Of a stretch of 32,849 nt of DNA, positions 2,755 through 26,210 are shown piece after piece. This DNA comes from Candidatus Thorarchaeota archaeon (lineage in GTDB: Archaea > Asgardarchaeota > Thorarchaeia > Thorarchaeales > Thorarchaeaceae): positions 1 to 32,849 of the forward strand of contig SDNP01000032.1 of NCBI GenBank assembly GCA_004524445.1. Direction: 5' to 3'. The notes below the pieces were generated by a model. The model had not been told where the DNA came from. It made no database searches and saw nothing but the letters and a program-made list of their open reading frames with translations. Numbering within the stretch: the first letter of the stretch is position 1; each line of letters starts with the position of its first letter. The translations under genes were made by a program, and so were the position numbers.

Positions 2755-2839
2755 TCTAATCAGCTTTAATAGATGCCTATGGTTTCCCTTAAATCCTTCT
2801 CACAACTGATACTGGAGAAGAAATAGTGAAAGGAGATAT

Positions 2840-2906
2840 CCAGCGCCCCGGGCAGGGGTGTCCAACTCGGCTCACAACTTTACGCCGAGTCTTCATCCGC
2901 CGCTGG
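2840..2906 (-). promoter_or_regulatory. Eukaryote-type SECIS element at the 3' end of vhuU
   Basis: Minus strand reads CCAGCGGCGG-AUGAA-GACUCGGC-GUAAAGUUGUGA-GCCGAGUU-GGAC-ACCC-CUGCC-CGGGG-CGCUGG. This gives an AUGA...GA kink-turn core, an 8-bp upper helix, an apical AAA, and lower helices GGCGG/CUGCC and CCAGCG/CGCUGG. It lies about 82 nt downstream of an in-frame UGA. Confidence 0.82.
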
Positions 2907-3045
2907 TCACAATCTCCTTCCTGGCTATCTCGCGACCCTCATCATCCACGATGGTTAGATGAGCGCCGCAGGATAGTCAGCAGTCGTAGCAGCGAACCAC
3001 CATTTCCAGGAGGTTCAGCAGTCCTTCGGGTATGTCGTCTGTCAT
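2893..3045 (-). CDS. vhuU: Selenocysteine-containing [NiFeSe]-hydrogenase small peptide subunit VhuU (50 aa, Sec at codon 23, TGA at 2977-2979); absent from ORF track
   Basis: Manual translation: MTDDIPEGLLNLLEMVVRCYDC-U-LSCGAH-LTIVDDEGREIARKEIVTSGG*. It supplies the C-terminal Ni-binding motif (RxYDPCxxCxxH) that vhuA lacks, and the TGA falls exactly on the Cys/Sec ligand position. Confidence 0.92.
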
Positions 3046-3060
3046 TTTTTTGTTCACTTC

Positions 3061-4374: not shown

Positions 4375-5291
4375 TTCTCTTCCTCTCTTTCTTTTCCCTT
4401 AATCTTCGAAAGGTACGAATCTGCATAATCTGTGAAATAGAATGAACCGATGGGATCTGGGAAGGCTGCCTTCAGCTCCTCCGGCTCCATCTCTGCAATG
4501 GCTCCCAACGCCGAGATTATTTTTGCACCGTGGTCCTTCACAGATGGAGGTGGACCGAAGCATCCTTTGCATGGTGTATTGACCGTTGGACACTGTGCTC
4601 CACACATTCCAATGGTTGCAAATCCTAGACAGAGATATCCTTGGTCCAGTAAACATTTGTCTGGGTCGATGTGACCCTCATGTGCACGATGAAACTTGGT
4701 GATGTGTTTGTCCTTCTTTTCCTTTGGACATTCATCACATACTGTCTTGGTGGGCAGCTCAAATGGTTGCCCCTTGATGAGAGCTGTTAATGCCTCAGCG
4801 GTGTTGTCACTCGTTGGAGGACAGCCGGGAAGCCGTACTTCAAAGGAAACGATGGATGGATTTGGTACAATGTGCTCAACAAATCCGGGCATGTTCTCGG
4901 TAGGAATTCTACCATCCTCGACGGTGTCTGCCTCGAGGAATTTTCGTCTTAGAAGCTCATCTAACGCCCATTGATTCCCAAGACCCTGTACTCCGCCGTA
5001 GACTGAGCAGGAGCCCCATGCTACCAAGACCTTGCTCTTTTTCCGCATGATCTTTAGTAGATGCTCGTCTTCCTTGGTTCTGCAGCTTCCTTCTACCATA
5101 CCAATGTGAATGGAACCATCCGGCATGTCTTCAAGGTCTTTCAACTTGAAGTCCACCACTGCTGGCCAATACACAATCTCTAGTTCAGGTAAGACGTCCA
5201 ATAAGCGAAGATGCAGGTCTACTAGTGCCTGGTCGCATCCCCAGCATGAAGTCAGTTGTGCAAGTGCTATTCTCTTGGTCATTTTAGTCAT
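4371..5291 (-). CDS. vhuG: F420-non-reducing hydrogenase small (FeS) subunit; start at 5291 or 5282
   Basis: SCWGC, VEGS, AWGSCSVYGG, LPGCPP, VCDECP, CLLDQGYLCLG...CGAQCP...PCKGCFGP. Its stop overlaps the vhuA start (ATGA). Confidence 0.92.
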   Translation of the reverse strand: MTKMTKRIALAQLTSCWGCDQALVDLHLRLLDVLPELEIVYWPAVVDFKLKDLEDMPDGSIHIGMVEGSCRTKEDEHLLKIMRKKSKVLVAWGSCSVYGGVQGLGNQWALDELLRRKFLEADTVEDGRIPTENMPGFVEHIVPNPSIVSFEVRLPGCPPTSDNTAEALTALIKGQPFELPTKTVCDECPKEKKDKHITKFHRAHEGHIDPDKCLLDQGYLCLGFATIGMCGAQCPTVNTPCKGCFGPPPSVKDHGAKIISALGAIAEMEPEELKAAFPDPIGSFYFTDYADSYLSKIKGKEREEEK

Positions 5292-5748
5292 CCTTCATTG
5301 CTGGATTGGGTCCTAGCTTTTTGATTCTCTCTACCATTGCCGTCACGCCTTGGGTAAATACATCGCCTTCAGCCGCACTTGCCCACTGTAGATGGACACG
5401 TCTTGGGTCTATACCAGCTTCCTTCAGCATGCTCTGGAGTAAAACGAATCTCCCTCTCATCTTCAGGTTGCCGCTTGTATAGTGACAGTCGCCAGGATGA
5501 CATCCACTGATGAGCACACCGTCTGCCCCCTGATTCAGCGCATCAAGAATGAAAACAGGGTCGATTCGCCCAGTACAATTGATTCTAATAATCCGTGCAT
5601 TTGGGGGCATTTGCATCCGGCTCGTTCCAGCAAGATCTGCTCCCGCATAGCTGCACCAATTACAGCAAAACGCCAAGATTCGGGGCTCAAAGCCTGCTTG
5701 CCGCTCCTTTTCCTTTTTTGTGGCTGTCTTCTGACTCGCTGATGTCAC
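5284..5748 (-). CDS. mvhD: MvhD/VhuD/FlpD-family [2Fe-2S] hydrogenase subunit (all-Cys form); probable GTG start at 5748
   Basis: FCCNWCSYAGADLAG, CTGRIDP, GADGVLISGCHPGDCHY and WASAAEG. A GGAGGT SD-like sequence lies about 10 nt upstream of the GTG at 5748. Confidence 0.93.
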   Translation of the reverse strand: MTSASQKTATKKEKERQAGFEPRILAFCCNWCSYAGADLAGTSRMQMPPNARIIRINCTGRIDPVFILDALNQGADGVLISGCHPGDCHYTSGNLKMRGRFVLLQSMLKEAGIDPRRVHLQWASAAEGDVFTQGVTAMVERIKKLGPNPAMKDD

Positions 5749-6010
5749 GCTGGAAATGACCTCCTGCGGCCTCAACTGCTCGGAATGATTATTGATTATT
5801 AAGATTCTGTTTAGTCGCACTTTTCTTTGGGCAGAAGCAATCAAAATTTTCTATAGAACTATGGTTTTCAAACACATTAAGATATGAGCTCTCGCGATGA
5901 ATTCTATCCGTCTGTACTAATATTTCATTCCTTGAATTTAGTAACAGTTTTTATGTCCCACTCCATCATCTATATGAGTTGTTGAGTCACAGTTGAAATG
6001 GTGATATGAT

Positions 6011-6247
6011 TTGATACTTGCGTTCATAATGGCCAAGCTCGAAAGCGCGAAAGCACGGAACGTACTCGAAGATGTGAGGGAACTCGAAGAAGTGTCAGAA
6101 GCACATCTCATATATGGAGCATACGACCTCATCATCAAAGGGAACTTCAAGACGCCCGAGGCACTGAGTTCCTTCGTTGTTGATACTCTACGGAAAATGG
6201 ATGGTGTGAAGGATACAGTAACAAATGTATGTGCCAGCCAGGAGTAG
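6011..6247 (+). CDS. Stand-alone Lrp/AsnC ligand-binding (RAM) domain protein without HTH
   Basis: 78 aa, AFIMAK...EVSEAHLIYGAYDLIIK...LRKMDGVKDTVT, the typical RAM-domain pattern. Confidence 0.85.
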   Translation: MILAFIMAKLESAKARNVLEDVRELEEVSEAHLIYGAYDLIIKGNFKTPEALSSFVVDTLRKMDGVKDTVTNVCASQE

Positions 6248-6282
6248 AGTACCAGCTGATTCACAGGAATTTTGCTCTTTCA

Positions 6283-8148
6283 CTAATTTACTGGAAGATT
6301 TAGGCGTTTCAGGGTTTCCTTCGTTGGTAGTCCTGTTTCTGGGTCCCATCCTCGAATCTCATAATATTCATCAAGCATTTCGTTCAATTCCACAACCTCT
6401 CCCTTAGAGGGCCCCTTCGGTGCAGGCACGTCCGTGAGTCGCTTGGGAAGCTGATCATCTTTTCGAGTCACACCTCGTCTAGCGTTGAAGAGTCGATTGA
6501 GGTTGACTATTCTCTCTCCGATTTCTCTCAATTCTTTAGCAGTGAACTCAAGTCCGTTGTGTATCCTTAGAGCAACTACAACATCATCATAGTAGAACTC
6601 GGGTGGTATCTGAGTTCCATATTTGCATAACCCAACGCTCTCAACTACAACCATGTAGTTCTCTGACTCGGCAACCATGATTCCCTTGTATTTCGGATTC
6701 AGGCGCTGTGCCATCTCTGGAAGATACTCCTCTCCGAAACGCTCCTTTATTTCTTCATCAAATCCGACTTCATCTAAGACTGGGAAGGCGTAGAGATGGT
6801 CCGCACCTCTCGCCGCAGTGACTGCAGCTAGCCCCATTGATTTCTGGGCTCTCGGTTCTTGTCCGGCTATCTCTTGCTTCTTGACAGTCATCACAAATTC
6901 TTCAGAACCTCGGCCAATCTTTTCCGCTGCTCGTTGACTCCCCTCAGCAAGAACATCACCAAATCCCTCACGATGAGCAATCATTTTGGTTAGTTTTACA
7001 ATCGCTTCATGATTTCCCCAACCGAGGTCAATCCCACCAGTATCCTCTTCTGTGATGAGTCCCTCGTCCCAGGCCTCCATTGCCCAGGATATGGTTGCGC
7101 CAAGGGAGATTGTATCCATCCCGTATTGGTTTGCCAAATGATGACTATATAGAATTGATTCTAGGTTCTCGTTTCCACAACGAGATCCGAGTGCGGATTG
7201 GGACTCGAATTCCGGTGAACCTCCCTCATAGCAATAGGGTCCCTTAGACACTCTTGTGTATCGACCACAGCGCTGCAGACACGCCCAGTCGGACCTTGGC
7301 TTAACAAGATAATCTTCAGTGATGGCTTCTCCACCAATCTTATCAGAACCCTCGAAGACACCTTGCCTCATATTGTATGAGGGCAGACGCCCGATGCTTT
7401 GCATCAATTCTATCAAGCTAGTTGTGCCATATTTTGCCCTGTCGGGCGTGAAGGGATTATCAAGCATTCGCCGGTGAAACTCGTCCATCCGTTTTAGATA
7501 CACATCTGGTTCTGCAACCTCAATCTTGCCAGTCCCACGAATACAGATTGCTTTGAGCTTCTTTGCTCCCATAACTGCTCCAAGACCCGAGCGCGCAGAG
7601 GCTCTGTCTCGGTCATTCATAATGGCTGCAAAACGAACCAGGTTTTCCCCCGCCTGTCCAATGGCTAGTGTTCGACACCGTATGCCATGACGTTCTCTCA
7701 AAATATCATCTGTTTCGAAGACATCCTTCCCCCACAAATCACTGGCATCAAGAATCTCCACTTTCTCGTTTCTGATATTAAGATAAACCGGTTTTTCTGA
7801 AGCACCGGTAAAGAAGATCGCATCATAACCTGCAAGCTTTAGTTCTGGGCCCCAAAAACCAGCAGCGTGACTCTCGCCCCATATATCCGTTAGTGGTGAG
7901 AGTGCTGCAATGACGTGTCTCGATGCTTGCGGAAACATTGAGCCAGTTAGGAGGCCCGTTGCCATTCCCAGCACATTCTCAGGTGACAATGGATCTGTAT
8001 CCGCGTCTGTTTGGTCATAGATGACCTTGGATAGAAGGCCCGCACCAAGGAGGTACTTCTGAATTAGTTCTTCATCAAGAGGTCTCTTCTCTATCTCCTT
8101 TGTCGTAAGGTCAATCCAGAGAATCTTCCCACCCACGCCCTTAATCAT
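6283..8148 (-). CDS. Tungsten-containing aldehyde:ferredoxin oxidoreductase family protein (AOR-1); probable start 8148 (MIKGVGGK)
   Basis: SPLTDIWGESHAAGFWGPELKLAGYD, SARSGLGAVMGAKKLKA, YGT, PEFES, GMDTISLG, RGADH and DEYYEIRGWD. A GGAGGTG SD-like sequence lies upstream of 8148. Confidence 0.93.
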   Translation of the reverse strand: MIKGVGGKILWIDLTTKEIEKRPLDEELIQKYLLGAGLLSKVIYDQTDADTDPLSPENVLGMATGLLTGSMFPQASRHVIAALSPLTDIWGESHAAGFWGPELKLAGYDAIFFTGASEKPVYLNIRNEKVEILDASDLWGKDVFETDDILRERHGIRCRTLAIGQAGENLVRFAAIMNDRDRASARSGLGAVMGAKKLKAICIRGTGKIEVAEPDVYLKRMDEFHRRMLDNPFTPDRAKYGTTSLIELMQSIGRLPSYNMRQGVFEGSDKIGGEAITEDYLVKPRSDWACLQRCGRYTRVSKGPYCYEGGSPEFESQSALGSRCGNENLESILYSHHLANQYGMDTISLGATISWAMEAWDEGLITEEDTGGIDLGWGNHEAIVKLTKMIAHREGFGDVLAEGSQRAAEKIGRGSEEFVMTVKKQEIAGQEPRAQKSMGLAAVTAARGADHLYAFPVLDEVGFDEEIKERFGEEYLPEMAQRLNPKYKGIMVAESENYMVVVESVGLCKYGTQIPPEFYYDDVVVALRIHNGLEFTAKELREIGERIVNLNRLFNARRGVTRKDDQLPKRLTDVPAPKGPSKGEVVELNEMLDEYYEIRGWDPETGLPTKETLKRLNLPVN

Positions 8149-8149
8149 T

Positions 8150-8635
8150 CTATTCAGCACCTCCGTAGAGCGCGTCTTCGTGTTTCTCATATAGGCTTTT
8201 CAGACGACCATCCTTGTCTTTTCTCTCGAGACCCTCATCAGTGGTCATCCATATTGCAAACACAGGACATCTCTTGATGCATTGCCCGCATTGGATACAT
8301 TTGATGGCTTTACCCGTATCGGGATTGATCTTTATTGCATCGTATGGACATGCCTTTATGCAATCACCATGACCTTTGCATTTATTCTTGTCAATGATGA
8401 CAATTCCCTTTGAGTTTCTCCTGATGGCCTCCACTGGACATGCCTCAATACAGGGCGCATCTTCGCAGTTACGGCAGAATAGGGGGAAATCGAGTCCGTT
8501 TTCCAAGCGGACAACTCTATTCCTTGCCTGCTCTGGACTGATGACTTTGTGAAAATGCATGCTACACGTCATCGAACAAATCATGCATCCTGTACAAACT
8601 TCGGGGTCTCCAAATACGTATCTTCTCGTAGACAT
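8150..8635 (-). CDS. 4Fe-4S dicluster (CooF/DmsB-like) electron-transfer subunit of AOR-1
   Basis: CTGCMICSMTC, CRNCEDAPCIEACP, CKGHGDCIKACP, KCIQCGQCIKRCP. Confidence 0.9.
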   Translation of the reverse strand: MSTRRYVFGDPEVCTGCMICSMTCSMHFHKVISPEQARNRVVRLENGLDFPLFCRNCEDAPCIEACPVEAIRRNSKGIVIIDKNKCKGHGDCIKACPYDAIKINPDTGKAIKCIQCGQCIKRCPVFAIWMTTDEGLERKDKDGRLKSLYEKHEDALYGGAE

Positions 8636-8647
8636 TCTGTCATACCT

Positions 8648-10006
8648 CTATAGGTGGATTGCGTCGCCCATCTTTTGGAACTGGCCATGTCCTGGCTTGA
8701 TGGTTGTTCTGTCGTCTTCAAATACTTTGACACCTCGCACAAATGTCATAATGGGCGCCCCGGTCATCTCCATCCCTTCATAGAGGGTCCAGCCACATTT
8801 TGAAAACATCATATCTGCAGAGATTTTTTCCTTCTTGGTTAGGTCTACCAAGACCATATCTGCATCGGACCCAACTGCAAGTACGCCTTTTTTTGGATAT
8901 AAACCGAAGAGCTTGGCTGGTTTGCTTGAAGTTACTTCAAGCAGGCGATGAAATGTCAAGCGATTCTTGTTGATTCCTTCAGACAGCAACACTCTGATTA
9001 TCATCTGAACACCATCGACCCCCGCCCACGCGTTTCGAATATCATGCTCTCCCTCTTCCTTCTTCTCTATTGGGGCGGGTGCATGATCACTGACAACAAT
9101 ATCGATTGTCCCTCGAAGTAAGGCTGACCATAGAGCAGCTCTATCTTGTTTGCTCCTCAGGGGCGGATTCATCTTGCTCTTCGTACCAAGGCGATTCATC
9201 TCATCTCGATGGAATTGCAAATGGTGTGGACAGACCTCCGTTGTTACAAGATCTCCATTTAGCTTCGCTCGTTCAACGGAAACTAATGCCCCTCTCGTGG
9301 TGATATGCGCGATATGGAGATGCCCTCCTGTCTTCTTCAATATTGCAATATTACGGTCAACCGCTATCTCCTCTGCAATCTCTGGTCGGGAGAGTGCATG
9401 ACTTATCGGAGCATCCCATTCTCCCTCCATCCTGCCAGAAAATTCGTCTAGTATATCTCTATCTTCAGAGTGAATTGCTAGGTGACCTCCATATTCAGAG
9501 GTCTCGCTTAGGGCTCTGACGATGGCACCAGTGCTTGCATAAAACGGCTCTGCAGTGAATGCCTTGAAGGCAGCAACTCCTGTATTGATAAGTTTGGGAA
9601 TCATTCCAACATTGTCAGAAGTGAGCATTCCACCATAGAGTGAAAAATCAACGATTGACATGTCTTGTCCCAGTCCCACCTTACATTCAACTGCCTCCAC
9701 AGTATCTACTTGAGATACCAGAGGCATATCGACAACTGTTGTCACCCCTCCAGCTGCAGCAGATCTGCTACCGGTGGTAAAATCCTCATGTTCCTCCATT
9801 TCCGGGTCATGAATATGAGCATGACCATCAATTAGGCCTGGTAGGAGGTATTTTTTCTCGGCATCAATAATTTCATCAGCCGGTGGCAAGTGCTCGTCAG
9901 AGGCGATAATCGCGATTCTTCCATTTGACACACCTACTCCGCCTCTTATTATTCCACTCTCAAGAACAAGTTTCGCATTTTTGATTACTAAGTCCAACTT
10001 TTTCAT
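8648..10006 (-). CDS. Cyclic amidohydrolase (allantoinase/dihydropyrimidinase/hydantoinase/dihydroorotase superfamily)
   Basis: PGLIDGHAH, AAAGGVTTVVDMP, the carbamylated-Lys region FKAF, HSED, HIAH, EVCPHHL, KMNPPLR, SDHAP and GSDAD. Confidence 0.88.
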   Translation of the reverse strand: MKKLDLVIKNAKLVLESGIIRGGVGVSNGRIAIIASDEHLPPADEIIDAEKKYLLPGLIDGHAHIHDPEMEEHEDFTTGSRSAAAGGVTTVVDMPLVSQVDTVEAVECKVGLGQDMSIVDFSLYGGMLTSDNVGMIPKLINTGVAAFKAFTAEPFYASTGAIVRALSETSEYGGHLAIHSEDRDILDEFSGRMEGEWDAPISHALSRPEIAEEIAVDRNIAILKKTGGHLHIAHITTRGALVSVERAKLNGDLVTTEVCPHHLQFHRDEMNRLGTKSKMNPPLRSKQDRAALWSALLRGTIDIVVSDHAPAPIEKKEEGEHDIRNAWAGVDGVQMIIRVLLSEGINKNRLTFHRLLEVTSSKPAKLFGLYPKKGVLAVGSDADMVLVDLTKKEKISADMMFSKCGWTLYEGMEMTGAPIMTFVRGVKVFEDDRTTIKPGHGQFQKMGDAIHL

Positions 10007-10009
10007 CTT

Positions 10010-10291
10010 TTATCCTCCTCCTACTGGTGGAAAGATTGCGATTGTATCCCCTAGCTCTAGCTCAGTATCACGGCCATCGAGAGTTTCTATCCTTTTTCCA
10101 TTCACCATAACAGAAAAGAATCGTTTAAGCTCTCCAGTATCAGGGTCAAAGACAGTCTTCTCAAATTCTGGGCCGAGCTTCTTCTTCAATTTCTCTAAGA
10201 GCTCTCCAACGTTTGCTGCTCTCATCTCTACAGACTTCTTTCCCGCCTTCTCTCTTACAGTTGCAAACAATTTGACTGTGACCTCTGGCAT
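10010..10291 (-). CDS. MoaD/ThiS/SAMP1-like ubiquitin-fold sulfur carrier; probable start 10291 (MPEV)
   Basis: VKLFATVRE...VMVNG...LELGDTIAIFPPVGGG with a C-terminal di-Gly. Confidence 0.9.
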   Translation of the reverse strand: MPEVTVKLFATVREKAGKKSVEMRAANVGELLEKLKKKLGPEFEKTVFDPDTGELKRFFSVMVNGKRIETLDGRDTELELGDTIAIFPPVGGG

Positions 10292-10471
10292 CAGATTGCC
10301 TCGCCTATCTTCCTTGGTGAGATGAGATATTAATAATTCCCAATGGACTTTCTTGTTTTTCTTGACTACATCCATCTTTTCTCACTGTAGATGAACTTCG
10401 TAGCAGTTATAGGTAATAGTGGGGATATATTTTCCTGAGTAGACATTCCCCTTGGTACTGAGGCCATCTAG

Positions 10472-11362
10472 ATGGAAATCATTGTCGTAGGACATCTGAG
10501 TAGAGATTTGATTATTACTCCGGATTATGAACGTGAAGCACTGGGTGGAGCCGCTGCCTATGCGATGGTCGCTCCCCACCTTGGTGCCCTCGGCGCAGGT
10601 ATAGTATCAAGAGTGGGAGAAGATTTCGAACAGACATATATCGACGACCTCCGCGAGGCAAATCTGGATCTCACAGGTCTCCGGGTTTCTGGAGAGAAAA
10701 CGACTCGGTTTGTCAACAAGTACGATAGGGACGGTAATCGTACACAATATGTCGAGGCAATAGCTCCTGAATTACGTGCCGCTGATTTATCTCCAGAGCA
10801 TCTTGAAGCCAATATATTTCATTTCAGCCCGATTATTGGGGAAGTACACCCCAGCTGTATTGAGGCGGCAAAGACCTATGGCGCACTGATTTCACTTGAT
10901 GTTCAAGGCTATGTGCGCGAGAATGATGAAGGAAAAGTAGTGCCCAAAGAATGGACGGATGCAGATCAAATAATACGGAATGTGGACATACTAAAGTGCG
11001 ACAAAGAAGAAATGAAGCTATTTGCTGATGACTATACTGAAGAGGACAGTGCTGAAAAGATACTGAGTTGGGGTCCCCATGCCATTATTGTTACTAAGAA
11101 CCAGGAGGGCTCAACCATCTATACCAGAAACATCCAGACTGATATCCCCTCTGTGGTGCCTGAGGACTATGTCGATTCGACTGGGTGCGGTGACACCTAT
11201 GCAATTGCCTTTCTCCTTGAATACATGAGAACCGGTGATGTCAAACGAGCCGGGCTTTTTGGGGCTACAACATCCTCATTTAATCTGGAACATGTTGGAC
11301 CATACTCTCTGCCATCACGGTCAGAGATCGAAGATAGGATGAAACAATATATGGAAGCCTGA
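10472..11362 (+). CDS. PfkB/ribokinase-family sugar or nucleoside kinase
   Basis: GHLSRD, LGGAAAY, VGEDF, SLDVQG and the PfkB signature 2 DSTGCGDTY. Confidence 0.88.
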   Translation: MEIIVVGHLSRDLIITPDYEREALGGAAAYAMVAPHLGALGAGIVSRVGEDFEQTYIDDLREANLDLTGLRVSGEKTTRFVNKYDRDGNRTQYVEAIAPELRAADLSPEHLEANIFHFSPIIGEVHPSCIEAAKTYGALISLDVQGYVRENDEGKVVPKEWTDADQIIRNVDILKCDKEEMKLFADDYTEEDSAEKILSWGPHAIIVTKNQEGSTIYTRNIQTDIPSVVPEDYVDSTGCGDTYAIAFLLEYMRTGDVKRAGLFGATTSSFNLEHVGPYSLPSRSEIEDRMKQYMEA

Positions 11363-11425
11363 ACACCTAATTGGAAACGCTTTTCTTACCAACGATATTC
11401 TCTGAAGGAGTGCTGAGGTGACCCC

Positions 11426-12610
11426 TTGCTCGAAGACCTTGATAACTTGATGGAAATTGAAGAGATTGACTCTCTAATGGTTTCTGGAAATGCATTCGAT
11501 AATCCGGATGTCTACTGGCTTACTGGTTTTCGTTCTCCTGATAACATTCTTTGCTTGCATAATCGTGGAGAGGAAACCATAGTTGCCACCGCATTCAAGA
11601 CCCTTGAGAGGCTGGAGAAAGAGAGTTTCATCGAAAAGACCTTTGATCTCACCGAGCTCTACCAGTCCTTTATGGAACGCGGAGAACGCGCAACAGATAA
11701 TCCTGAGAAAGTGATGGATGCAGTTCTCAAGGAGAATTTTGATGGAGAAGTGATTGGAGTACCCAGGCGGTTTCCATCAGATTTGTTAATTGCTATCCAA
11801 AACTTAGGATGTGAAGTAAAGCCCGTTCCTGATTTGCTCCTGCAAGCCAGAGCAACCAAATCCGAAGAAGAAATCAAAATGATTGAGAAGGCGGGAGAGG
11901 CTACTATCTGCGCTCTCTCGAATGTTATTGAGCTGATCAAGAACACTGGAATCGGTGCTAATGACGTTTTGCTAAGCGATGGTGAGCCGCTAACTGTGCG
12001 TGATGTAAAACAAGCATTGAACCATAATCTACTTGATATGACTGCAGAGGCGGCTGAAGACTCGATTGTTGCGGTTGGTCAGATGGGCTATGACTGGCAT
12101 TACCTAGGTGCTCCCGACGATAAAATCAAGGCTAATGTTCCCATTATTATGGATGTCTTTCCTAGACTTAAAATTGAACGATACGTGGCTGACGTCACCC
12201 GAACCGTTGTGAAGGGGACTCCCAGCGATAAGGTTCGGGAGATGTTTTATGCTGTCATGGAGGCCGGAGATGCAGTATTGGATGAGATGACTGCAGGTGC
12301 CAACATTGATGACGTGAACATGGCATGCTATAACACCCTAAAGGAGCATGGCTTTGGTTCTTCAAGGCTCAATCCTGGCGCAAAGGAAGGAATGACGCAT
12401 AGTCTTGGCCATGGTATTGGACTAGAGGTCCATGAATATCCAAGCATGTATGTTCGTGATGGCGAATTCAAGGAAGGCCATGTTGTTGCCATAGAGCCAG
12501 GAGTCTATTTGATGAATGAAGGTGGAGTTCGCATCGAAAATGACTTTGTGGTGACCAAGGACAAACCTAAAAGAACTACCATGGGCCTAGAAGAGATACT
12601 ATACTTGTAG
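11426..12610 (+). CDS. M24B Xaa-Pro aminopeptidase/prolidase family protein
   Basis: Metal ligands intact: MDVFP, ADVTRT, HSLGHGIGLEVHE, IEPG, GGVRIEND. Confidence 0.9.
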   Translation: MLEDLDNLMEIEEIDSLMVSGNAFDNPDVYWLTGFRSPDNILCLHNRGEETIVATAFKTLERLEKESFIEKTFDLTELYQSFMERGERATDNPEKVMDAVLKENFDGEVIGVPRRFPSDLLIAIQNLGCEVKPVPDLLLQARATKSEEEIKMIEKAGEATICALSNVIELIKNTGIGANDVLLSDGEPLTVRDVKQALNHNLLDMTAEAAEDSIVAVGQMGYDWHYLGAPDDKIKANVPIIMDVFPRLKIERYVADVTRTVVKGTPSDKVREMFYAVMEAGDAVLDEMTAGANIDDVNMACYNTLKEHGFGSSRLNPGAKEGMTHSLGHGIGLEVHEYPSMYVRDGEFKEGHVVAIEPGVYLMNEGGVRIENDFVVTKDKPKRTTMGLEEILYL

Positions 12611-12615
12611 AGCGG

Positions 12616-13710
12616 CTAACCCACACTCAATGCGTAGAATGGACAGACAGAGATGCACATTCCGCATCTCTGGCATCTATCTTCATCAATCCCAAAGAAG
12701 TCTTTTTTCTTGTTCACAGTGATTGCATTATATACACATGATTTTTCACAGAGTCCACATAGAGTGCACTTCTCAAGATTGACTTGGGGCTTGCCTCTCA
12801 GAGAATGCTTTTCTTTCAGATGAGGAAGTGCCAGTCCAGTCAACTGACTGACAGACTCGTACTGATGTTCTTTGAGCCAATCTGACATCTCACCTGCAAT
12901 TCTACCATAGACTGTCTGTCCCTCTAGGATAGCAGCTGTGCATACTTGAACAGCAGATGCGCCCGCCATCATGAACTCGATGGAATCTTCTCCAGACGAA
13001 ACTCCACCAACGGCAATAACCGGAATATCAACAGCACTGGCAATATCTGCAACACATCGCATTGCAATGGGTTTGAGAGCGGCACCACTTAGCCATCCCT
13101 CTCCCCCATCGCTGCCTAAGAATGGTTTCCCGGTTTCTATATCAATGCGTAGGCAAGGACCGTATGTGTTGATTGCCACAATCCCGTCAACATGCTTCTC
13201 GATTTCCTTTGCAACTGCAACCACATCGACCTTCGGGCTAAGCTTGGCAAAGATTGGGATATCTACGGCATCTTTCAGGGCCTTGGCAATCTCGACATGT
13301 CCTCCAACATAATGAGTACTAAATTCGATGGCTTGCACACCTGCATCCTCAATCTTAGGGGCAATCTCAGCAACTTCTTCAGGTGTGTAACCGACGCTAG
13401 CTATCACAGGAAGTCCAGAACTCAAAGCTATAGGATACTCCCTTTCTAGCCACTGCGATAACGGAATTTCACTCCACAGTTCTGCATTAAGCAATCCGCG
13501 TCGTGATTTCACTCTTCCCCGTCCGAGCGCAGTGATATTGGGATTTGGCACTTCTGCTGGCTTGATACTGACAGTCTTTGCGACTAATCCTCCTGCACCC
13601 CCTGTGGCAGCATTAAGCAGGGTCATGCCATCTCGTGCAGCTGGTCCTGCGGCTGTAAGGACTGGGTTTCTTAGTTTCAGGCCTGCTAAGTTGACTTTGA
13701 GGTCTGGCAT
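12616..13710 (-). CDS. DHODH/dihydropyrimidine dehydrogenase (PreA)-like FMN protein with C-terminal 2x[4Fe-4S] domain; non-canonical active-site loop
   Basis: LKLRNPVLTAAGP, VAKT, IPIFAKLSP, INT, GWLSGAALKP, AVGGV and AGASAVQVCTA. C-terminal CTLCGLCEKSC and CQRCGMCISVCP. Confidence 0.87.
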   Translation of the reverse strand: MPDLKVNLAGLKLRNPVLTAAGPAARDGMTLLNAATGGAGGLVAKTVSIKPAEVPNPNITALGRGRVKSRRGLLNAELWSEIPLSQWLEREYPIALSSGLPVIASVGYTPEEVAEIAPKIEDAGVQAIEFSTHYVGGHVEIAKALKDAVDIPIFAKLSPKVDVVAVAKEIEKHVDGIVAINTYGPCLRIDIETGKPFLGSDGGEGWLSGAALKPIAMRCVADIASAVDIPVIAVGGVSSGEDSIEFMMAGASAVQVCTAAILEGQTVYGRIAGEMSDWLKEHQYESVSQLTGLALPHLKEKHSLRGKPQVNLEKCTLCGLCEKSCVYNAITVNKKKDFFGIDEDRCQRCGMCISVCPFYALSVG

Positions 13711-13758
13711 ATCTGTTCTTCTTCATGTTTCAGCATATGAATCCTGCCCACAATCAGA

Positions 13759-15696
13759 CTATTGCTGGCCAGCGAGCATCTTTCTCTTTTTGAGGTCCTG
13801 AGCGACATAGTCCAACTGGAGTTTATCCAACTTAGACTCCAAGGGGAAACCGGTTTCACGATCACACCCACGGTACTTGTAGTACTCATCAAGCATCTCA
13901 TCCAAATCAGGAAGTCCACCTTTAGCGGGGCCTGTTGGCATTGGTTCTTTCAACAGACGACGGGGCAGGGTCTCCTGTTGTCGGGTTATTCCTAAGCGAT
14001 GATTGTACGCTCGTCGAAGATGACTGATTCGCGCTCCTGAACTCTTCACAAACGCTAGGTCTGCCCAGTCATCCATGCCTGTGAGTGGTGGGATGATATT
14101 CGCGAACGTTTCATAGTAGTATACGGGTGGCCACATGACGCCATACTTACAGATGACAGCAGAGTCAGTGATTGCATAGAGGTCCTCCATGTCTTTGATT
14201 AGTTCGCCCTTGTACTTGGGACTCATTATCTTCAAAATATCATCTGCCTTTTCTTCGCCAAACCGATGTATCGCAATCTCGGGGTATCCCAGTTCTTCAA
14301 GGCTGGAGAGGCTGCGAAGGTGGTCAGCACCTCTAACATTAGTGGCGTATGTTAATCCGACTGACTGATGTGCTCGCGGGTCTTGACCAGATGCCTCAAG
14401 CCCCTTCGAATGGACAGCGTATTTCCATGCATCTCCACCTATGATTTCCGCCGCTTGTCGAGTTCCTTTTGCCAAAATCTCGCCGAAGCCTTCCTTCTTT
14501 GCAATCATCTCGACGAGTTCTACCATTGAGTCGATATTTCCCCAACTCAGATCCAAGCCATTCGTGTCTTCCTTGTCGATGATTCCCTTCTCATAGAGCT
14601 CCATAGCAAAGCCAATGGTCTTCCCGCAAGATATGGTGTCCATCCCAAGCAAATCACATCGCTTACCTAGATGGAAGACTGATTCAATATCATCATTCAA
14701 GCAGTTGCTGCCGAATGCCATAATCGTTTCGTACTCGGGCCCGCCCACCGGGGTTGTCTTGAACTCACCCTCATTCACCCTGATGATATATTTGCAGCCA
14801 ACGACACAACCGTGGCAGGCCTCTTGAGCAATGCGATATTCATTTGCAATAATCTCAGGACCAATTTTATCTGCATCTTCAAAATATCCCGTCCAATGAT
14901 TCTTGGTGGGTAATCGCCCAATCTCATTTATTATCGAAACCAAATCGGTAGTGCCGTATTTTCTTAATGATTCAAGAGAGCTGGCCCAGAGCGGGTCTCT
15001 GACTCTCGCCATTTCTTCTTCATTGGCCTTCAAATATGCATCCATATCATGGGCATCGATTCCCATTGATCCGCTGACAGCAATTCCTTTGACATTCTTA
15101 GAGCCTAACACCGTTCCAAGACCCGCTCGACCCGCTGCCCTGTAGTAGTCAACAATTATGGCACCATACAGGACACCATTTTCTGCTGCAGGCCCTATCA
15201 CTGCTGTTTCTATGGATGGGTCTTTGTGTTTCTCTCTAATCATGTCAGTAGTAACATTCGTTTCTCTTCCCCAAAGGTCTGAAGCATCGAGAAGTTCTGC
15301 CTTGCCATCCTGAATGAATAGATAGACCGGTTTCTCGGAACGCCCGTTGAATATAACAAAATCAAAGCCTGCATATTTGAGCTCGGGTCCAAAGAATCCA
15401 CCAGAATGGCTCTCCGCCCATACTCCGGTAAGGGGTCCCTTTGATGCGAACATGAATCTCCCGGATGGGGAGAACATCGATCCTGTCAGAGGTCCTGTTC
15501 CAACGACCAATAGGTTATCGGGGGAGAGTGGGTCTGTTGACGGCCCAGTGCGGTCCCAGAGGATTTTTGCTGCTACTCCTGTTCCGCCCAGATAGAGTCT
15601 TGCCCATTCTTTTTTCATCTCCTTCTTGTGTATCTTGCCTTTCTCCAAGTCGATATCTAAGTATTCTCCTGCATAGCCCTTGTAAGGAAATGTCAC
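13759..15696 (-). CDS. Tungsten-containing aldehyde:ferredoxin oxidoreductase family protein (AOR-2)
   Basis: GPLTGVWAESHSGGFFGPELKYAGFD, AAGRAGLGTVLGSKNVKG, ACHGCVVGC, GGPEYET, GMDTISCG, RGADH, ICKY. Confidence 0.93.
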   Translation of the reverse strand: MTFPYKGYAGEYLDIDLEKGKIHKKEMKKEWARLYLGGTGVAAKILWDRTGPSTDPLSPDNLLVVGTGPLTGSMFSPSGRFMFASKGPLTGVWAESHSGGFFGPELKYAGFDFVIFNGRSEKPVYLFIQDGKAELLDASDLWGRETNVTTDMIREKHKDPSIETAVIGPAAENGVLYGAIIVDYYRAAGRAGLGTVLGSKNVKGIAVSGSMGIDAHDMDAYLKANEEEMARVRDPLWASSLESLRKYGTTDLVSIINEIGRLPTKNHWTGYFEDADKIGPEIIANEYRIAQEACHGCVVGCKYIIRVNEGEFKTTPVGGPEYETIMAFGSNCLNDDIESVFHLGKRCDLLGMDTISCGKTIGFAMELYEKGIIDKEDTNGLDLSWGNIDSMVELVEMIAKKEGFGEILAKGTRQAAEIIGGDAWKYAVHSKGLEASGQDPRAHQSVGLTYATNVRGADHLRSLSSLEELGYPEIAIHRFGEEKADDILKIMSPKYKGELIKDMEDLYAITDSAVICKYGVMWPPVYYYETFANIIPPLTGMDDWADLAFVKSSGARISHLRRAYNHRLGITRQQETLPRRLLKEPMPTGPAKGGLPDLDEMLDEYYKYRGCDRETGFPLESKLDKLQLDYVAQDLKKRKMLAGQQ

Positions 15697-15697
15697 T

Positions 15698-16207
15698 TCA
15701 AATCTCCTCCTGCACAGTCTGCATCTTTGCTACCGGTTCTATCCCTCTCTTTCGGTTCAAGAGCCCGCCTTCAGAGAATTCAACATATTCAATTGCACCA
15801 TATTCACATGCCTTCATGCATGCTGGATTCCCCTCACAGAGGTCACATTTTGCCGCCTTCTTTGTCACAGGATCTATTGAAATTCCTCCATAGATACAAG
15901 CAGTTACACAGCTTCCACAGCCTATGCATATTTCCGGTACCACATAGAGGGTGCCATTGGAATTTGGTCTAATCGCCCCAGTTGGACATGCTTCCTGACA
16001 GAGGGGTTCCTCACACTGAAGGCATACCATTGGTAAAATGATACCCTTATTCTCATTCTTGATAACTTTGATTCTCGACCTGCTTGGGTTGAATAGTCGA
16101 TAATGTTCAACAGAACATGCCAGCTCACAATTTCTGCAGCCTGTGCATTTCTTTACATCGACTGTCAGGATATGTTTCATTTTCTTCCATCCCTCTGCTA
16201 CTGTCAT
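15698..16207 (-). CDS. 4Fe-4S dicluster electron-transfer subunit of AOR-2 (start 16207 or 16180)
   Basis: CTGCRNCELAC, CLQCEEPLCQEACP, CIGCGSCVTAC, KCDLC...PACMKAC. Confidence 0.9.
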   Translation of the reverse strand: MTVAEGWKKMKHILTVDVKKCTGCRNCELACSVEHYRLFNPSRSRIKVIKNENKGIILPMVCLQCEEPLCQEACPTGAIRPNSNGTLYVVPEICIGCGSCVTACIYGGISIDPVTKKAAKCDLCEGNPACMKACEYGAIEYVEFSEGGLLNRKRGIEPVAKMQTVQEEI

Positions 16208-16402
16208 GGATGCAATCTAGGGCTTTGTAGCGTTGGTACTTTAACTTGTTGTAATCTGCGCTTTAGGGATTGCTCGGTGCTAGCTCTGCCAAAACAGTAT
16301 ATGGGGCAAAAGTATTAGTAGATATTATACTCTGCTGTCATTGCTCAGCAGCAAAGGGCACATGACGAAAAGGTGGGGAGCATTACAGGCGTGAATAATC
16401 AA

Positions 16403-18211
16403 ATGACAGAACACTCTGAAAAAGGCCCTCTCAGCATATCAAATCCTAGTCAATTCAAAATGCTGTTTGAACGAATTGGGCTCCCTGTGGTCGAACTGGA
16501 TAGACATTTCCATCTGATTCACGCCAATGCAGCTGCTCGGAAACTATTGGGCATCGAGGAGCGTGACTTAGACTCAAAGATAAGCGCGACAGACCTAGTT
16601 GTTGATGAACAGAGATCACTTGTTGTCCGGGGCCTCGAGAGTTTAGCCGAGGGTGCAGACTCAACCCCTATCACGTTACGAATAAAACGCTCAGATGGCG
16701 TAGAGAGCATGGCTGAGGTGTTCAGCGAGGTAATTCTAGAAGAGGGAGAGATTGCAGGTTATCGGACATATGCATTTGACTTAACCAGACGACTGGCACT
16801 TGAAGAACGGTTCAAGGAAAAGGAAGATATCTTTCAACTCATCGTAGAAAATGCAAGCTTCACAGGTATCTTGGTTGTTAATGGAGATTACAAGTTTGAA
16901 TACGTGAATGACAAGCTTTGTGACATGGTAGGATTATCTCGACGAGATCTCCTTGGTCTTGACTTCCGAGAAGTCTTGCATCCTGATAGCGTAAACCTTG
17001 TAAGCGACAGATATATTCAGCGACAGAGAGGCGAAAAGGTTCCAAGAGAATATGAGTTTCAGATAATACGTGCTGATGGCGAAGTAAGAGATGTTATGAT
17101 CAGCAGTAGTATCATACGCAGCAGCGATGAGCGAGTGAAAACAGTCGCCCAGATTCTTGACATAACTGAAGAGAAACAAAGCAAGCATAAACTTGAGGAG
17201 AGCGAGCGGCGACACAGAACACTGATAGAAACAATGGACTCTGGCTTGGCTGTAGATGACGAGGAAGGTATGACGGTTCTAGTAAACGAAGCTCTCGCCG
17301 ATATGCTCGGATATGACTCGGTAGATGAGATGATTGGCATACCTATTACTGAATGGGTTCATGGATGGACAGCAAGGAATGTAACTGAAAAGGCGCAGCT
17401 GCGGAAAGCAGGTCAAAAGGAGAATTATGAGCTGAATCTGCAGAGGAAGGATGGCAAGATTGTTCCAACTATTGTACAAGCCTCTCCAATATTCGACCCT
17501 GATTCAAATTACATAGGAAGTTTTGCTGTATTCACGGATGTTACTGAACTGAAAAAAGCTGAAGCAGAAGTTCGATTCTTTCTCGACCTTTTGTTGCATG
17601 ATATTGGAAATCAACTCCAGCTCATCTTGGCAGGAGCAGATATGCTATCTAGAGATGCTGATCAAGACCAAATCTCCAGGTCAAAGCAGTATGTATTGGA
17701 CGGCGCACGGCGGTGCCTCAATCTTATCACCAATATCCGTCGTACGGAACAGTCCAAGAGCGAACCTCTAGCTGCAGTGGATTTGACTGAGGTGCTTAAA
17801 ACACAGGTCCGGCTATTCTCAGGACAATATGGGCTTCATCCGACGGTGAAAGGGCTTCCTGATTCGATGCATGTAATTGCTGATAGCGCTCTAGGACACC
17901 TATTCTGGAATCTAATGGAAAATAGCATAAAACACAATCCCAGAGATGAGAAGACCCTAGAAATAACTGGTGAGCGAAAGGGAAAGACGTTCGTCGTTAG
18001 TTTCACAGACAACGGTCCTGGTCTTGAAGAAGAGAAAAAGCGGTCCCTTCTCGACCCCACAAGACGGTCTGGAGGTGTAGGTCTTCATCTCATCAGGAGA
18101 ATGATGGACAAATATGGCGGCGCCATTCATCTTGATGACCGAGTTGAAGGTAGCCCAGAAGAGGGTCTGTGTATTAGAATTGAACTTCTAATAGCCAACG
18201 AAAAATCATAG
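16403..18211 (+). CDS. Soluble three-PAS-domain sensor histidine kinase (start ATG 16403 or GTG 16373)
   Basis: Three PAS/PAC repeats (e.g. YVNDKLCDMVG...DITEEK), H-box LHDIGNQLQ, N-box NLMENSIKHN, G1 DNGPG, G2 GGVGL. No TM segment. Confidence 0.9.
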   Translation: MTEHSEKGPLSISNPSQFKMLFERIGLPVVELDRHFHLIHANAAARKLLGIEERDLDSKISATDLVVDEQRSLVVRGLESLAEGADSTPITLRIKRSDGVESMAEVFSEVILEEGEIAGYRTYAFDLTRRLALEERFKEKEDIFQLIVENASFTGILVVNGDYKFEYVNDKLCDMVGLSRRDLLGLDFREVLHPDSVNLVSDRYIQRQRGEKVPREYEFQIIRADGEVRDVMISSSIIRSSDERVKTVAQILDITEEKQSKHKLEESERRHRTLIETMDSGLAVDDEEGMTVLVNEALADMLGYDSVDEMIGIPITEWVHGWTARNVTEKAQLRKAGQKENYELNLQRKDGKIVPTIVQASPIFDPDSNYIGSFAVFTDVTELKKAEAEVRFFLDLLLHDIGNQLQLILAGADMLSRDADQDQISRSKQYVLDGARRCLNLITNIRRTEQSKSEPLAAVDLTEVLKTQVRLFSGQYGLHPTVKGLPDSMHVIADSALGHLFWNLMENSIKHNPRDEKTLEITGERKGKTFVVSFTDNGPGLEEEKKRSLLDPTRRSGGVGLHLIRRMMDKYGGAIHLDDRVEGSPEEGLCIRIELLIANEKS

Positions 18212-18268
18212 ACACCAAAATCGTTAATTCGAATCTTCGTTTTTGTTGTATATCCCGGAGAAGATTCA

Positions 18269-19666
18269 ATGTCTAAGTCAGGTTCAATTTTGATTAAAAA
18301 CGGATATGTATTGACTCTGAATCCCGAACGCAAGATAATCAGGGATGGTGCAGTTTACGTAGAAGGTGCAAACATAGCGGATGTTGACAAGAGTGCAGAC
18401 CTTTCCAAGTATTCTGCTGACCGAGTCATCGATGCAGGGGGAGGCATTGTCATGCCTGGGCTCATCGATACACACACACACCTTGCTCAAGCTCTCATCA
18501 GGGGGTGTGCAGATGATGTTTCTCTTGTTGATTGGCTGAAGAGGTACGTCTGGGTGTTACAGGGTAATTTCACCGAACTAGACGGAAAGGTATCTGCTGA
18601 GCTTTGCATGGCTGAGATGATTAAGAGTGGGACCACGTCTTTCATAGAATGCATGATTCACACCAGATATGGCTTCGATGGTATTGCTCGTGCGGTTGAT
18701 CGCATCGGAATGCGTGCTGCCCTGTCAAAGATAATTATGAACTCTACAGGATACGCCGACAGCCCTGATATCATGTATCCTGGTATGGTTGAAGACGAAG
18801 ATGCCTGCCTTCGCGAAACTAAAGAGATGCTGCAAAAATGGCATGGAAAAGCCGATGGACGTCTGCAGGTTTGGTATGGACTGAGATCCCTGGGTGCTGT
18901 CACTGATGACCTATTCAAAAAGGTCGTACATCTGGCTGACGAACACGACACTCACATGACAATGCATCTCGGTGAAGTGGTCGATGATGTTCGTTATGTA
19001 AGGGATAAGGGATATGATAATCTGACCGCCTTCGCAGAAGACATGGGACTACTGGGTTCCAATATGGTCTTTGCACATGGCATCCACTTCGAGGACTCTG
19101 AAATTGATCTCTTGGCAAAGACACAGAGCAATATCTCACACTGTCCCGCTAGCAATATGAAGCTAGCATCAGGATTCGCAAAAATACCCCTGATGTTGCA
19201 GAAGGGAGTTCCGGTATCATTGGGCTGTGATGGTGGGCCCAGCAACAATACATATGACATGGTATCGGAGATGCGCCTTGCCGCACTCATTCACAAAGCC
19301 TACTTCGAGGACCCCTTGGTGGTGCCTGCAGAAAAGGCGATAGAGATGGCAACTATAGGTGGAGCCAGGGCCATGGGCATTGAGGACCACGTTGGCTCTT
19401 TAGAGATTGGGAAATTGGCTGACTTAATTATCATCAATATTGACCATACCGGGCTTACTCCACATCCCAATCCGGTCTCAAATCTTGTCTATGCCGGTTC
19501 GGGACATTATGTTGACACAGTGATGTGCAACGGAAACCTGTTGATGCTGGACCGGGAACTACTCACTCTAGATGAAAGGAAAGTTAGAAAGCAGGCAAAT
19601 AAACAGATTGAGGCATTGCTTGACCGTGCAGATATAACTATCGAACCAAAGTGGGATACCCTGTAA
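18269..19666 (+). CDS. Amidohydrolase of the SsnA / MTA-SAH deaminase / 8-oxoguanine deaminase group
   Basis: PGLIDTHTH, SGTT, MHLGE, FAHG, HCPASNMKLASG, LGCDG, GSLEIGKLAD. Confidence 0.88.
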   Translation: MSKSGSILIKNGYVLTLNPERKIIRDGAVYVEGANIADVDKSADLSKYSADRVIDAGGGIVMPGLIDTHTHLAQALIRGCADDVSLVDWLKRYVWVLQGNFTELDGKVSAELCMAEMIKSGTTSFIECMIHTRYGFDGIARAVDRIGMRAALSKIIMNSTGYADSPDIMYPGMVEDEDACLRETKEMLQKWHGKADGRLQVWYGLRSLGAVTDDLFKKVVHLADEHDTHMTMHLGEVVDDVRYVRDKGYDNLTAFAEDMGLLGSNMVFAHGIHFEDSEIDLLAKTQSNISHCPASNMKLASGFAKIPLMLQKGVPVSLGCDGGPSNNTYDMVSEMRLAALIHKAYFEDPLVVPAEKAIEMATIGGARAMGIEDHVGSLEIGKLADLIIINIDHTGLTPHPNPVSNLVYAGSGHYVDTVMCNGNLLMLDRELLTLDERKVRKQANKQIEALLDRADITIEPKWDTL

Positions 19667-22910: not shown

Positions 22911-22983
22911 TCTTGATCACCAAGTTCCTACAACTCGAATTTCATAGAGTCCTATAATGATTATGTATCAATCAATAGGATAC

Positions 22984-26178: not shown

Positions 26179-26210
26179 CTTTGTTGACCTCATGTCTTTC
26201 GAAATTCTTT

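Follow-up and report, generated by a model that had tools for sequence, protein, structure and literature searches.

The stretch of DNA analysed here (32,849 nucleotides of contig SDNP01000032.1, Candidatus Thorarchaeota assembly GCA_004524445.1; hereafter, the window) carries, at about 6283-19666, a gene island in which two catalytic subunits of the aldehyde oxidoreductase (AOR)/WOR family, AOR1 and AOR2, are each encoded in one operon with a polyferredoxin and a presumed nucleobase-ring enzyme: the cyclic amidohydrolase AmhA in operon A and a PreA-like flavoprotein in operon B (Table 1; gaps within both operons are 1-48 nt). The reading that we tentatively favour, and which stays somewhat short of probable, is that the island represents the upper (redox and ring-opening) part of an anaerobic purine-type route, in which the AORs would act on the ring in the place of enzymes of the xanthine dehydrogenase (XDH) type. 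The arrangement of AOR and ring-enzyme genes is more than chance, as it recurs across lineages; the AORs concerned form a distinct clade, and relatives of the flavoprotein are found in clusters with SsnA, YgeY, XDH and YgfK. Gene content was taken from the open reading frame (ORF) listing and from Pfam/NCBIfam scans of the window, and both clusters singled out by an initial annotation of this DNA (MoaD, amidohydrolase, Fe-S protein and AOR1; Fe-S protein, AOR2 and PreA-like protein) were recovered where it had placed them. The genome is a Thorarchaeota metagenome-assembled genome (MAG) of 2.79 Mb, 90% complete, with ten AOR paralogs.

When the AORs were taken as the starting point, 98 of them were considered (80 loci from species genomes plus the other loci examined), and the clade of their tree that holds AOR1 and AOR2 is referred to below as the N clade. 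Neighbours were sought by single-sequence phmmer (E < 1e-6), from which distant families escape, with the window proteins and E. coli YgeW, YgeX, YgeY, HyuA, YqeA, YgfK, SsnA, XdhD and XdhA as queries, and a cyclic amidohydrolase, COG0402 or PreA-like gene was seen within 4 kb of 15 of the 22 N-clade AORs versus 2 of the 76 others, one of these two lying in the sister group (the Fisher p of ~1e-10 is inflated by related genomes). The linked members come from Thorarchaeota, Bathyarchaeia (L012, L013), Spirochaetales (L048), Anaerolineales (L078), Neomarinimicrobiota (L022) and unbinned sediment contigs. Contexts within the clade include the full island in a second Thorarchaeota MAG, an AOR (fragment) with PreA-like, polyferredoxin, AOR and amidohydrolase genes, a Bmp-type nucleoside ABC transporter adjoining polyferredoxin, AOR and amidohydrolase genes, an AOR followed by an amidohydrolase and, in one bacterial member, an AOR alone. 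The gene orders in L048 (YgeY, at 434 bits against a cut-off of 321, then SsnA-like, PreA-like and AOR) and in L022 (PreA-like, COG0402, AOR) parallel the ygfK-ssnA-ygfM-xdhD order of E. coli. The linkage to nucleobase genes that the initial annotation had suspected is, in other words, seen among the closest relatives of AOR1 and AOR2, which recur with hydantoinase-like, PreA-like, SsnA-like and YgeY genes.

For the flavoprotein, a five-sequence alignment served as the search seed and brought together 80 metagenome contigs on which a relative of the PreA-like protein is encoded (47-75% identity), 50 of them also carrying AORs; the 36 adjacent AORs that were added to the tree are without exception members of the N clade. 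These 36 make up three ortholog groups with fixed positions: alpha (the AOR2 type; support 0.97), in the invariant order polyferredoxin > AOR > PreA-like, beta (the AOR1 type), placed after an amidohydrolase and a polyferredoxin, and gamma, placed after PreA-like-polyferredoxin or polyferredoxin-MoaD. Thor-type contigs repeat the island (histidine kinase / polyferredoxin-AOR-PreA-like / M24, PfkB / MoaD-AmhA-polyferredoxin-AOR), and a second contig set (51-56% identity) shows polyferredoxin-AOR-PreA-like-polyferredoxin-(MoaD)-AOR, often with a third AOR, SsnA-like or AmhB-type amidohydrolases, and carbamoyltransferases or carbamate kinase. A basal set of 27 contigs has no AOR; in 26 of them an SsnA-like gene directly adjoins the flavoprotein gene (the SsnA of L166 passes the NCBI cut-off, at 568 bits versus 444), an AmhA ortholog is often present, and XDH and full-length YgfK are found in four and three contigs, respectively. 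As the basal flavoproteins are found beside SsnA, some of them with XDH or YgfK, the island can be tied to the reductive urate/2,8-dioxopurine pathway; the PreA-like protein of the window is itself 47-55% identical to proteins encoded beside SsnA, XDH and YgfK. Across the 301 genomes of the phylum that were sampled, the flavoprotein is encoded in 71 of the 76 genomes of the window's own family and in 14 of the 19 of one other family.

Both AORs are full-length Pfam matches to AFOR_N and AFOR_C (253 + 435 bits for AOR1, 247 + 406 bits for AOR2) and are 43% identical to each other, the label “tungsten” being assumed from the family. The 120 best homologs of AOR1 are all from Asgard archaea (76-94% identity), and beyond these, no relative in a 50%-clustered library exceeds 48% identity; in the tree built from the library relatives and the genome's paralogs, AOR1, AOR2 and a third paralog (C62:26517-28910, L090; a polyferredoxin and an AOR, 43-46% identical to AOR1/AOR2) form one clade with a support of 0.999. 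The nearest solved relatives of AOR1 and AOR2 are the AOR sensu stricto chains 9MQX, 1AOR, 9G7J and 8C0Z, at 382-458 bits versus the 550-831 bits that the L021 and L040 AORs, sensu stricto-clade members from other parts of the tree, reach against the same chains; judged by this comparison of scores (the reference sequences are not in the trees, which are FastTree approximations), AOR1 and AOR2 lie apart from the AOR sensu stricto clades, and were thus not found inside the characterised aldehyde-oxidising clades, where the initial annotation had allowed that they might fall. AOR2 retains all four Cys ligands of the [4Fe-4S] cluster and the equivalent of the Glu313/His448 pair; AOR1 retains three of the cluster Cys and the Glu/His pair, with an Asp (residue 301, window ~7288-7290) at the first Cys position. 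This Asp is found in 121 of 121 Thor-type AOR1 sequences, a Cys being present in 80 of 81 other AORs and in the nearest non-Thor relatives (L003, L004).

The likeness to AorABC(DE) of Aromatoleum aromaticum (8C0Z) and to AOR sensu stricto extends to the two-domain subunit, the Glu/His pair and the cluster motif and, for AorABC(DE), to a four-cluster polyferredoxin partner (Fd2, a paralog of Fd1, has 16 Cys that are invariant across 14 orthologs, in four CxxCxxCxxxC-type groups, enough for four clusters, as in AorA) and a MoaD-like gene in the operon. The third subunit, however, differs: no AorC-like gene is present in the island, and the place of the FAD/NAD protein AorC is occupied by the gene of the PreA-like FMN/Fe-S protein, the candidate for this subunit. 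The island AORs also differ from AOR sensu stricto in belonging to a separate clade, in the Asp of the Thor AOR1 and in their nucleobase-type neighbours. The predicted complex of Fd2 with the PreA-like protein scored 0.00 against a mark of 0.32, which counts neither way. A precedent for new substrates in the family is BamB, an AOR-family member with an Fe-S partner and non-aldehyde ring chemistry; this class II benzoyl-CoA reductase subunit (4Z3W) is distant from AOR1 and AOR2 (215-242 bits over the N-terminal two thirds) and has a different partner set, BamCDEFGHI.

The PreA-like flavoprotein has the FMN TIM barrel, the conserved Lys and the Gly-rich FMN motifs of PreA/dihydropyrimidine dehydrogenase (DPD) and class 1B PyrD, as well as the PreA-type C-terminal pair of [4Fe-4S] clusters, and its nearest solved relatives are dihydroorotate dehydrogenase (DHOD) B and DPD. 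It differs from them in having no PreT or PyrK partner and in the deletion of the catalytic-Cys loop of DHOD/DPD, in place of which stands an STHY motif (window ~13297-13326), whose His or Tyr possibly serves as proton donor; the ..SCP.. Cys loop is retained in E. coli PreA and in the genome's own PyrD. As the deletion and the STHY motif are common to all 85 family members aligned, XDH-linked ones included, the loss is a family trait, and degeneration was rejected as its explanation. By its relatives, the protein is assigned to a UacX-like, SsnA-linked family, the likeness to UacX being one of described architecture. It is 31% identical to the genome's PyrD-like paralog, and AmhA is 29% identical to a housekeeping PyrC-like paralog on C56; since the genome has these separate paralogs (29-31% identity), the genes of AmhA and the PreA-like protein count as additional copies.

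At 364 bits, AmhA passes the cut-off (358) of the allantoinase model TIGR03178; among solved proteins it comes closest to the L-hydantoinase 1GKR (268 bits) and the allantoinase 3HM7, and its metal ligands (HxH, Lys, His, His, Asp) are all aligned. Given its match to E. coli HyuA (193-195 bits), and the AmhA orthologs (360-402 bits) that adjoin SsnA-like and PreA-like genes in AOR-free contigs, AmhA is judged to be the counterpart of HyuA. The second amidohydrolase, AmhB, had initially been annotated as an SsnA/deaminase-type enzyme, of which the deaminase half has stood and the SsnA half has not: it matches E. coli GuaD at 137 bits and SsnA at 56 bits, the SsnA models at 204-220 bits (cut-offs 444-456), and solved methylthioadenosine/S-adenosylhomocysteine deaminase and 8-oxoguanine deaminase at 256 and 196 bits, its best NCBIfam match being 5'-deoxyadenosine deaminase (422 bits, under the cut-off of 522). 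On these scores SsnA was rejected. The PAS histidine kinase gene lies between AmhB and operon B, and AmhB-type enzymes (495-534 bits) are encoded beside polyferredoxin-AOR-PreA-like genes in the non-Thor contigs L131, L141, L143 and L144. The PfkB kinase that the initial annotation had reported between the operons is indeed there, together with an M24 metallohydrolase gene missing from its list, both being kept solely in Thor-type loci. The best solved relative of PfkB is the M. jannaschii MJ0406 entry (72 bits, a weak match; deposited as “sugar kinase”), which we take to be a nucleoside kinase, and PfkB is possibly a nucleoside or ribose-1-phosphate kinase. The best solved relatives of the M24 protein are Pyrococcus prolidases, and its substrate may be an amide or ureido compound further down the route.

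The known pathway with which the island is to be compared, described in gut bacteria in 2025, converts urate to 2,8-dioxopurine by XdhD, the 2,8-dioxopurine dehydrogenase (DOPDH), reduces the ring by YgfK or, in C. difficile, by UacX, opens it by SsnA and HyuA, cleaves the ureido groups by YgeW/YqeA or UacY, and YgeY, and yields pyruvate as the end product of the YgeX step, hypoxanthine and xanthine entering via a separate XDH (10.1101/2025.05.19.654654; 10.1101/2025.04.24.650524). Its genes are clustered as ygeW-ygeX-ygeY-hyuA-yqeA ... ygfK-ssnA-ygfM-xdhD in E. coli, with C. difficile/C. sporogenes variants having UacX and UacY, and neither paper mentions archaea, tungsten or ferredoxin-linked AORs (10.1101/2025.05.19.654654; 10.1101/2025.04.24.650524). 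UacX, a PF01180 protein, has no FAD/NAD(P)H module, and its electrons probably have to come from a donor of the ferredoxin type (10.1101/2025.05.19.654654). The island resembles this cluster in its DHO_dh-fold Fe-S flavoprotein without an NAD(P)H module, as described for UacX, its hydantoinase-type ring opener similar to HyuA (AmhA), its COG0402 amidohydrolase and the company kept by its relatives: those of the flavoprotein and of AmhA adjoin SsnA (one of which passes the NCBI cut-off), and those of the flavoprotein also stand beside YgfK and XDH, one of them in an operon with a YgeY passing its cut-off. It differs in having no enzyme of the XDH family, one to three AORs with polyferredoxins being found in such clusters instead, in the lack of SsnA in the island and of YgeX/YgeY above their cut-offs in the genome, in the degenerate state of the nearby carbamoyltransferase-like gene, in the additional PfkB, M24, PAS kinase and neighbouring Vhu hydrogenase genes, and in the host, an Asgard archaeon. 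The absence of XDH from the window, remarked upon in the initial annotation, extends to the whole genome (90% complete), in which the XDH molybdenum-binding domain PF02738 has no match; the same domain has no match in two Bathyarchaeia genomes with AOR-linked clusters.

With the flavoprotein, SsnA-like and HyuA-like proteins common to AOR- and XDH-linked clusters, the simplest reading is that both handle the same intermediates, which would leave to the AORs the sole steps without an enzyme, namely, the insertion or removal of oxygen at ring carbons. On this reading, the AORs would most likely stand in for the molybdenum hydroxylases, and the evidence points to a purine rather than a pyrimidine as the ring. 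In the proposed scheme, AmhB would deaminate an amino-purine, PfkB might handle the nucleoside or its ribose, the PreA-like flavoprotein (as the UacX/YgfK counterpart) would reduce the ring, and AmhA (as the HyuA counterpart) would open the hydantoin-type ring, the two AORs, each with its four-cluster polyferredoxin, replacing XDH and XdhD/DOPDH by adding or removing oxygen at a ring carbon, a lactam/amidine interconversion that formally resembles the acid/aldehyde interconversion AORs already perform. Electrons would run through the polyferredoxins, in operon B straight to the flavoprotein, and the Vhu hydrogenase could feed in electrons from H2; the substrates, the direction of electron flow and the action of the AORs on the heterocycle itself are what we infer. 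That a cluster has two or three AOR paralogs is reminiscent of C. sporogenes, with its two molybdenum hydroxylases. A broader formulation, which we regard as possible and hold a little more loosely, is that the N-clade AORs may be pterin-dependent purine hydroxylases/dehydroxylases which in anaerobic archaea, and in some bacteria, would do the work of XDH and 2,8-dioxopurine dehydrogenase and, connected by polyferredoxins to the Cys-less reductase, would make up a self-balancing unit: ring hydroxylation would pay for dehydroxylation and reduction, and the Vhu hydrogenase would top this up from H2.

Several observations weigh against this replacement of XDH by AORs, the first of them being that the catalytic Glu/His pair of aldehyde-oxidising AORs is unaltered across the whole N clade. 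The C62 paralog adjoins genes of glutamate dehydrogenase and a class IV aminotransferase, an ordinary context for an AOR of amino-acid fermentation, and the sister subgroup that includes it has a polyferredoxin as its only neighbour. As for the downstream steps, neither YgeX nor YgeY, which the initial annotation had not seen in the window, is found above its cut-off anywhere in the genome (best 51 bits versus 532 and 129 bits versus 321.5, respectively), no true SsnA is encoded in the island, where the COG0402 enzyme is of the deaminase type, and the sole SsnA-like gene of the genome is unlinked (C21:34081-35406, that is, L094 4081-5406; 383 bits versus the cut-off of 444), so the complete pyruvate route is not recognisably encoded. 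That SsnA-like gene has a HEAT-repeat protein gene before it and an ABC ATPase gene after it, an uninformative context, and the carbamate kinase gene on C6 is likewise unlinked, with uninformative surroundings. An either/or pattern of AOR and XDH is weak, given that XDH lies within 8 kb in only 4 of the 27 AOR-free clusters, and in the three bacterial genomes that have AOR-linked modules, genes of the XDH family are present at other loci. With respect to the metal, no WtpA tungstate-binding protein is found in the genome despite its ten AOR genes (TupA and ModA were not searched for). We know of no AOR-family enzyme that acts on a heterocycle, and purines and heterocycles go unmentioned in a 2025 review of enzymes with an obligate need for tungsten.

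Part of this evidence is shared with an explanation that we consider rather unlikely, in which the pathway is the same and the AORs oxidise an aldehyde, be it a ring-opened intermediate or an external one, and pass the electrons via the polyferredoxins to the PreA-like reductase; they would then be the donor module of the reductase and no replacement for XDH. Such a role agrees with the Glu/His residues and cluster ligands matching those of aldehyde-oxidising AORs, with the aldehyde-producing (amino-acid) context of the sister subgroup, with the XDH genes kept elsewhere in the bacterial genomes, and with the alpha AOR always being placed between the polyferredoxin and flavoprotein genes, as in AorA-AorB-AorC with the FAD subunit swapped; UacX-type reductases, moreover, have no NAD(P)H module of their own (10.1101/2025.05.19.654654). 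The characterised pathway with homologous SsnA, HyuA and YgeY, however, has no aldehyde intermediate and ends in pyruvate, a stoichiometric supply of an external aldehyde for purine breakdown is hard to imagine, and neither the two or three AOR paralogs per cluster nor the absence of XDH from the archaeal genomes would be explained.

It is decidedly unlikely, in our estimate, that the ring is not a purine and that another N-heterocycle (a pyrimidine, orotate, a 5-substituted hydantoin or a nicotinate-like compound) is degraded in the manner of reductive pyrimidine breakdown or of the nicotinate reductase/enamidase pathway (reductase, cyclic amidohydrolase, aldehyde oxidation), the likeness to the urate cluster holding at the family level only. 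AmhA does score about equally as an allantoinase, dihydroorotase, hydantoinase and dihydropyrimidinase, the solved proteins nearest to the flavoprotein are, as said, DHOD B and DPD, the Thor island is without a true SsnA, and M24 and PfkB have no counterpart in the urate cluster. Against these stand the loss of the DHOD/DPD catalytic Cys loop throughout the flavoprotein family, the ties of the basal flavoproteins to the urate-pathway markers SsnA, YgfK, XDH and YgeY, the purine-type deaminases represented by AmhB and its recurring orthologs, and the purine-nucleoside-type Bmp ABC transporter flanking one AOR-amidohydrolase pair. That the AORs are ordinary broad-range aldehyde oxidoreductases, positioned here by shared regulation or inherited gene order, is disfavoured as highly improbable: the genome does have ten AOR paralogs, MoaD or polyferredoxin neighbours are common across all AOR clades, and close relatives within Thorarchaeota contribute much of the linkage counted, but at least five distant lineages, some of them bacterial, show the linkage again in rearranged gene orders, and it is confined to one AOR clade and also holds when the search starts at the flavoprotein.

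Provided that the AORs do replace the XDH-type enzymes, the island predicts a new job for the AOR family and possibly a new substrate class, in a literature in which no description was found linking AOR or tungsten to the breakdown of purines or N-heterocycles, to hydantoinase or to ssnA. If so, the family would, BamB apart, gain its first non-aldehyde substrate class, one of N-heterocycles, and tungsten AOR chemistry would widen from aldehydes (and benzoyl-CoA) to N-heterocycles if purines are what the AORs act on, leaving anaerobes with two pterin enzymes, unrelated to each other, that carry out the same steps of purine breakdown. A purine fermentation route in Asgard archaea would mean that Thorarchaeota, Bathyarchaeia and other sediment archaea could live on nucleic-acid bases, with relevance to how Asgard metabolism is modelled and to the turnover of sedimentary carbon and nitrogen. 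The prediction is a concrete one, with the genes, candidate substrates and assay named.

Table 1. Island genes and their neighbours in the 32,849-nucleotide window
Feature	Position	Strand	Context and matches
MoaD/ThiS-like small protein	10010-10375	-	first gene of operon A; PF02597 60 bits, TIGR01687 moaD_arch 72 bits
AmhA, cyclic amidohydrolase of hydantoinase/allantoinase type	8648-10006	-	operon A
Fd1, polyferredoxin, 4x[4Fe-4S], 16 Cys, AorA-like	8150-8635	-	operon A; Fer4 families
AOR1, AOR/WOR-family catalytic subunit, beta subgroup	6283-8190	-	last gene of operon A; AFOR_N + AFOR_C
Fd2, polyferredoxin, 4x[4Fe-4S]	15698-16207	-	first gene of operon B; Fer4 families
AOR2, AOR/WOR-family catalytic subunit, alpha subgroup	13759-15696	-	operon B; AFOR_N + AFOR_C
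PreA-like flavoprotein, 364 residues, DHO_dh barrel + C-terminal 2x[4Fe-4S]	12616-13710	-	operon B; PF01180 120 bits
PfkB-family kinase	10472-11362	+	between operons, divergent from operon A; PF00294
M24 metallohydrolase, prolidase/creatinase type	11426-12610	+	between operons; PF00557 + Creatinase_N
PAS-domain histidine-kinase-like sensor	16373-18211	+	divergent from operon B; PAS repeats + HATPase_c
AmhB, COG0402 purine-type aminohydrolase, deaminase type	18269-19666	+	beyond PAS kinase from operon B
Stand-alone RAM (AsnC ligand-binding) domain protein, 78 aa	6011-6247	+	convergent with AOR1; PF01037 55.7 bits
VhuD-VhuG-VhuA(-putative VhuU) F420-non-reducing [NiFe(Se)] hydrogenase	2893-5844	-	NCBIfam VhuA 488, VhuG 276, VhuD 145 bits
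purB	27020-28384		passes TIGR00928: 475 bits, cut-off 326
OTC-like (“YgeW-like”) gene	28473-29486		YgeW models 39-43 bits, cut-offs 453-500

The true start of the MoaD/ThiS-like gene is probably ~30 codons downstream of the annotated one, and that of AOR1 is probably Met15, at about 8148. As a MoaD gene also adjoins many AORs outside the N clade, it is to be seen as a general AOR accessory. The PAS kinase gene is found upstream of polyferredoxin-AOR-PreA-like wherever Thor-type contigs reach that far, and its product is likely a regulator. In L009, the AOR2 and PreA-like genes are separated by an inserted gene (2633-4438, + strand) for a CLC-type channel that has CBS domains, and a gap of ~2 kb is seen at the same site in L096, L103, L105-L107, L109, L110 and L114.

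Beyond AOR1 lie the VhuD-G-A genes, spanning 3061-5844 on the minus strand, whose inclusion in operon A was dropped: the 108-aa minus-strand ORF that would bridge the two (5938-6264) is of low complexity, an antisense shadow of the convergent RAM-domain gene, which is kept after AOR1 in other Thorarchaeota as well (L001 among them). With this intervening gene being real, the hydrogenase is therefore a separate, adjacent transcription unit. A Vhu/Mvh-type hydrogenase or MvhD-type gene is found 0.45-0.85 kb downstream of AOR1 in the window and in L001, L104, L107, L114, L119, L121 and L124, which gives an MvhD-type gene after AOR1 in 8 of the 13 Thor-type loci with enough downstream DNA (window counted) and suggests H2 as the donor; the neighbouring Vhu hydrogenase is a possible electron donor, the functional tie of the Vhu/MvhD genes to the AOR island being a guess. 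In L001, AOR1 is followed by an MvhD-ferredoxin fusion and another polyferredoxin.

The initial annotation had also brought in purB and a YgeW-like gene further along the window, and the identity of the former has held up, while that of the latter is weak. Both were dropped from the system and are probably bystanders: purB is the sole adenylosuccinate lyase gene of the genome and scores above the cut-off of the biosynthetic model, the likeness of the OTC-like gene to YgeW is marginal (~40 bits), and their synteny with the island is seen in Thorarchaeota only (L017). On the same side of the island, an ABC-2 exporter-like block (window 21699-26978) adjoins AmhB, as it also does in L017, L116, L117 and L121; it comprises an ABC-2 permease and, where the contigs are longer, an ABC ATPase and a 255-aa protein too, and occurs near AmhB with or without a B12-radical-SAM gene.

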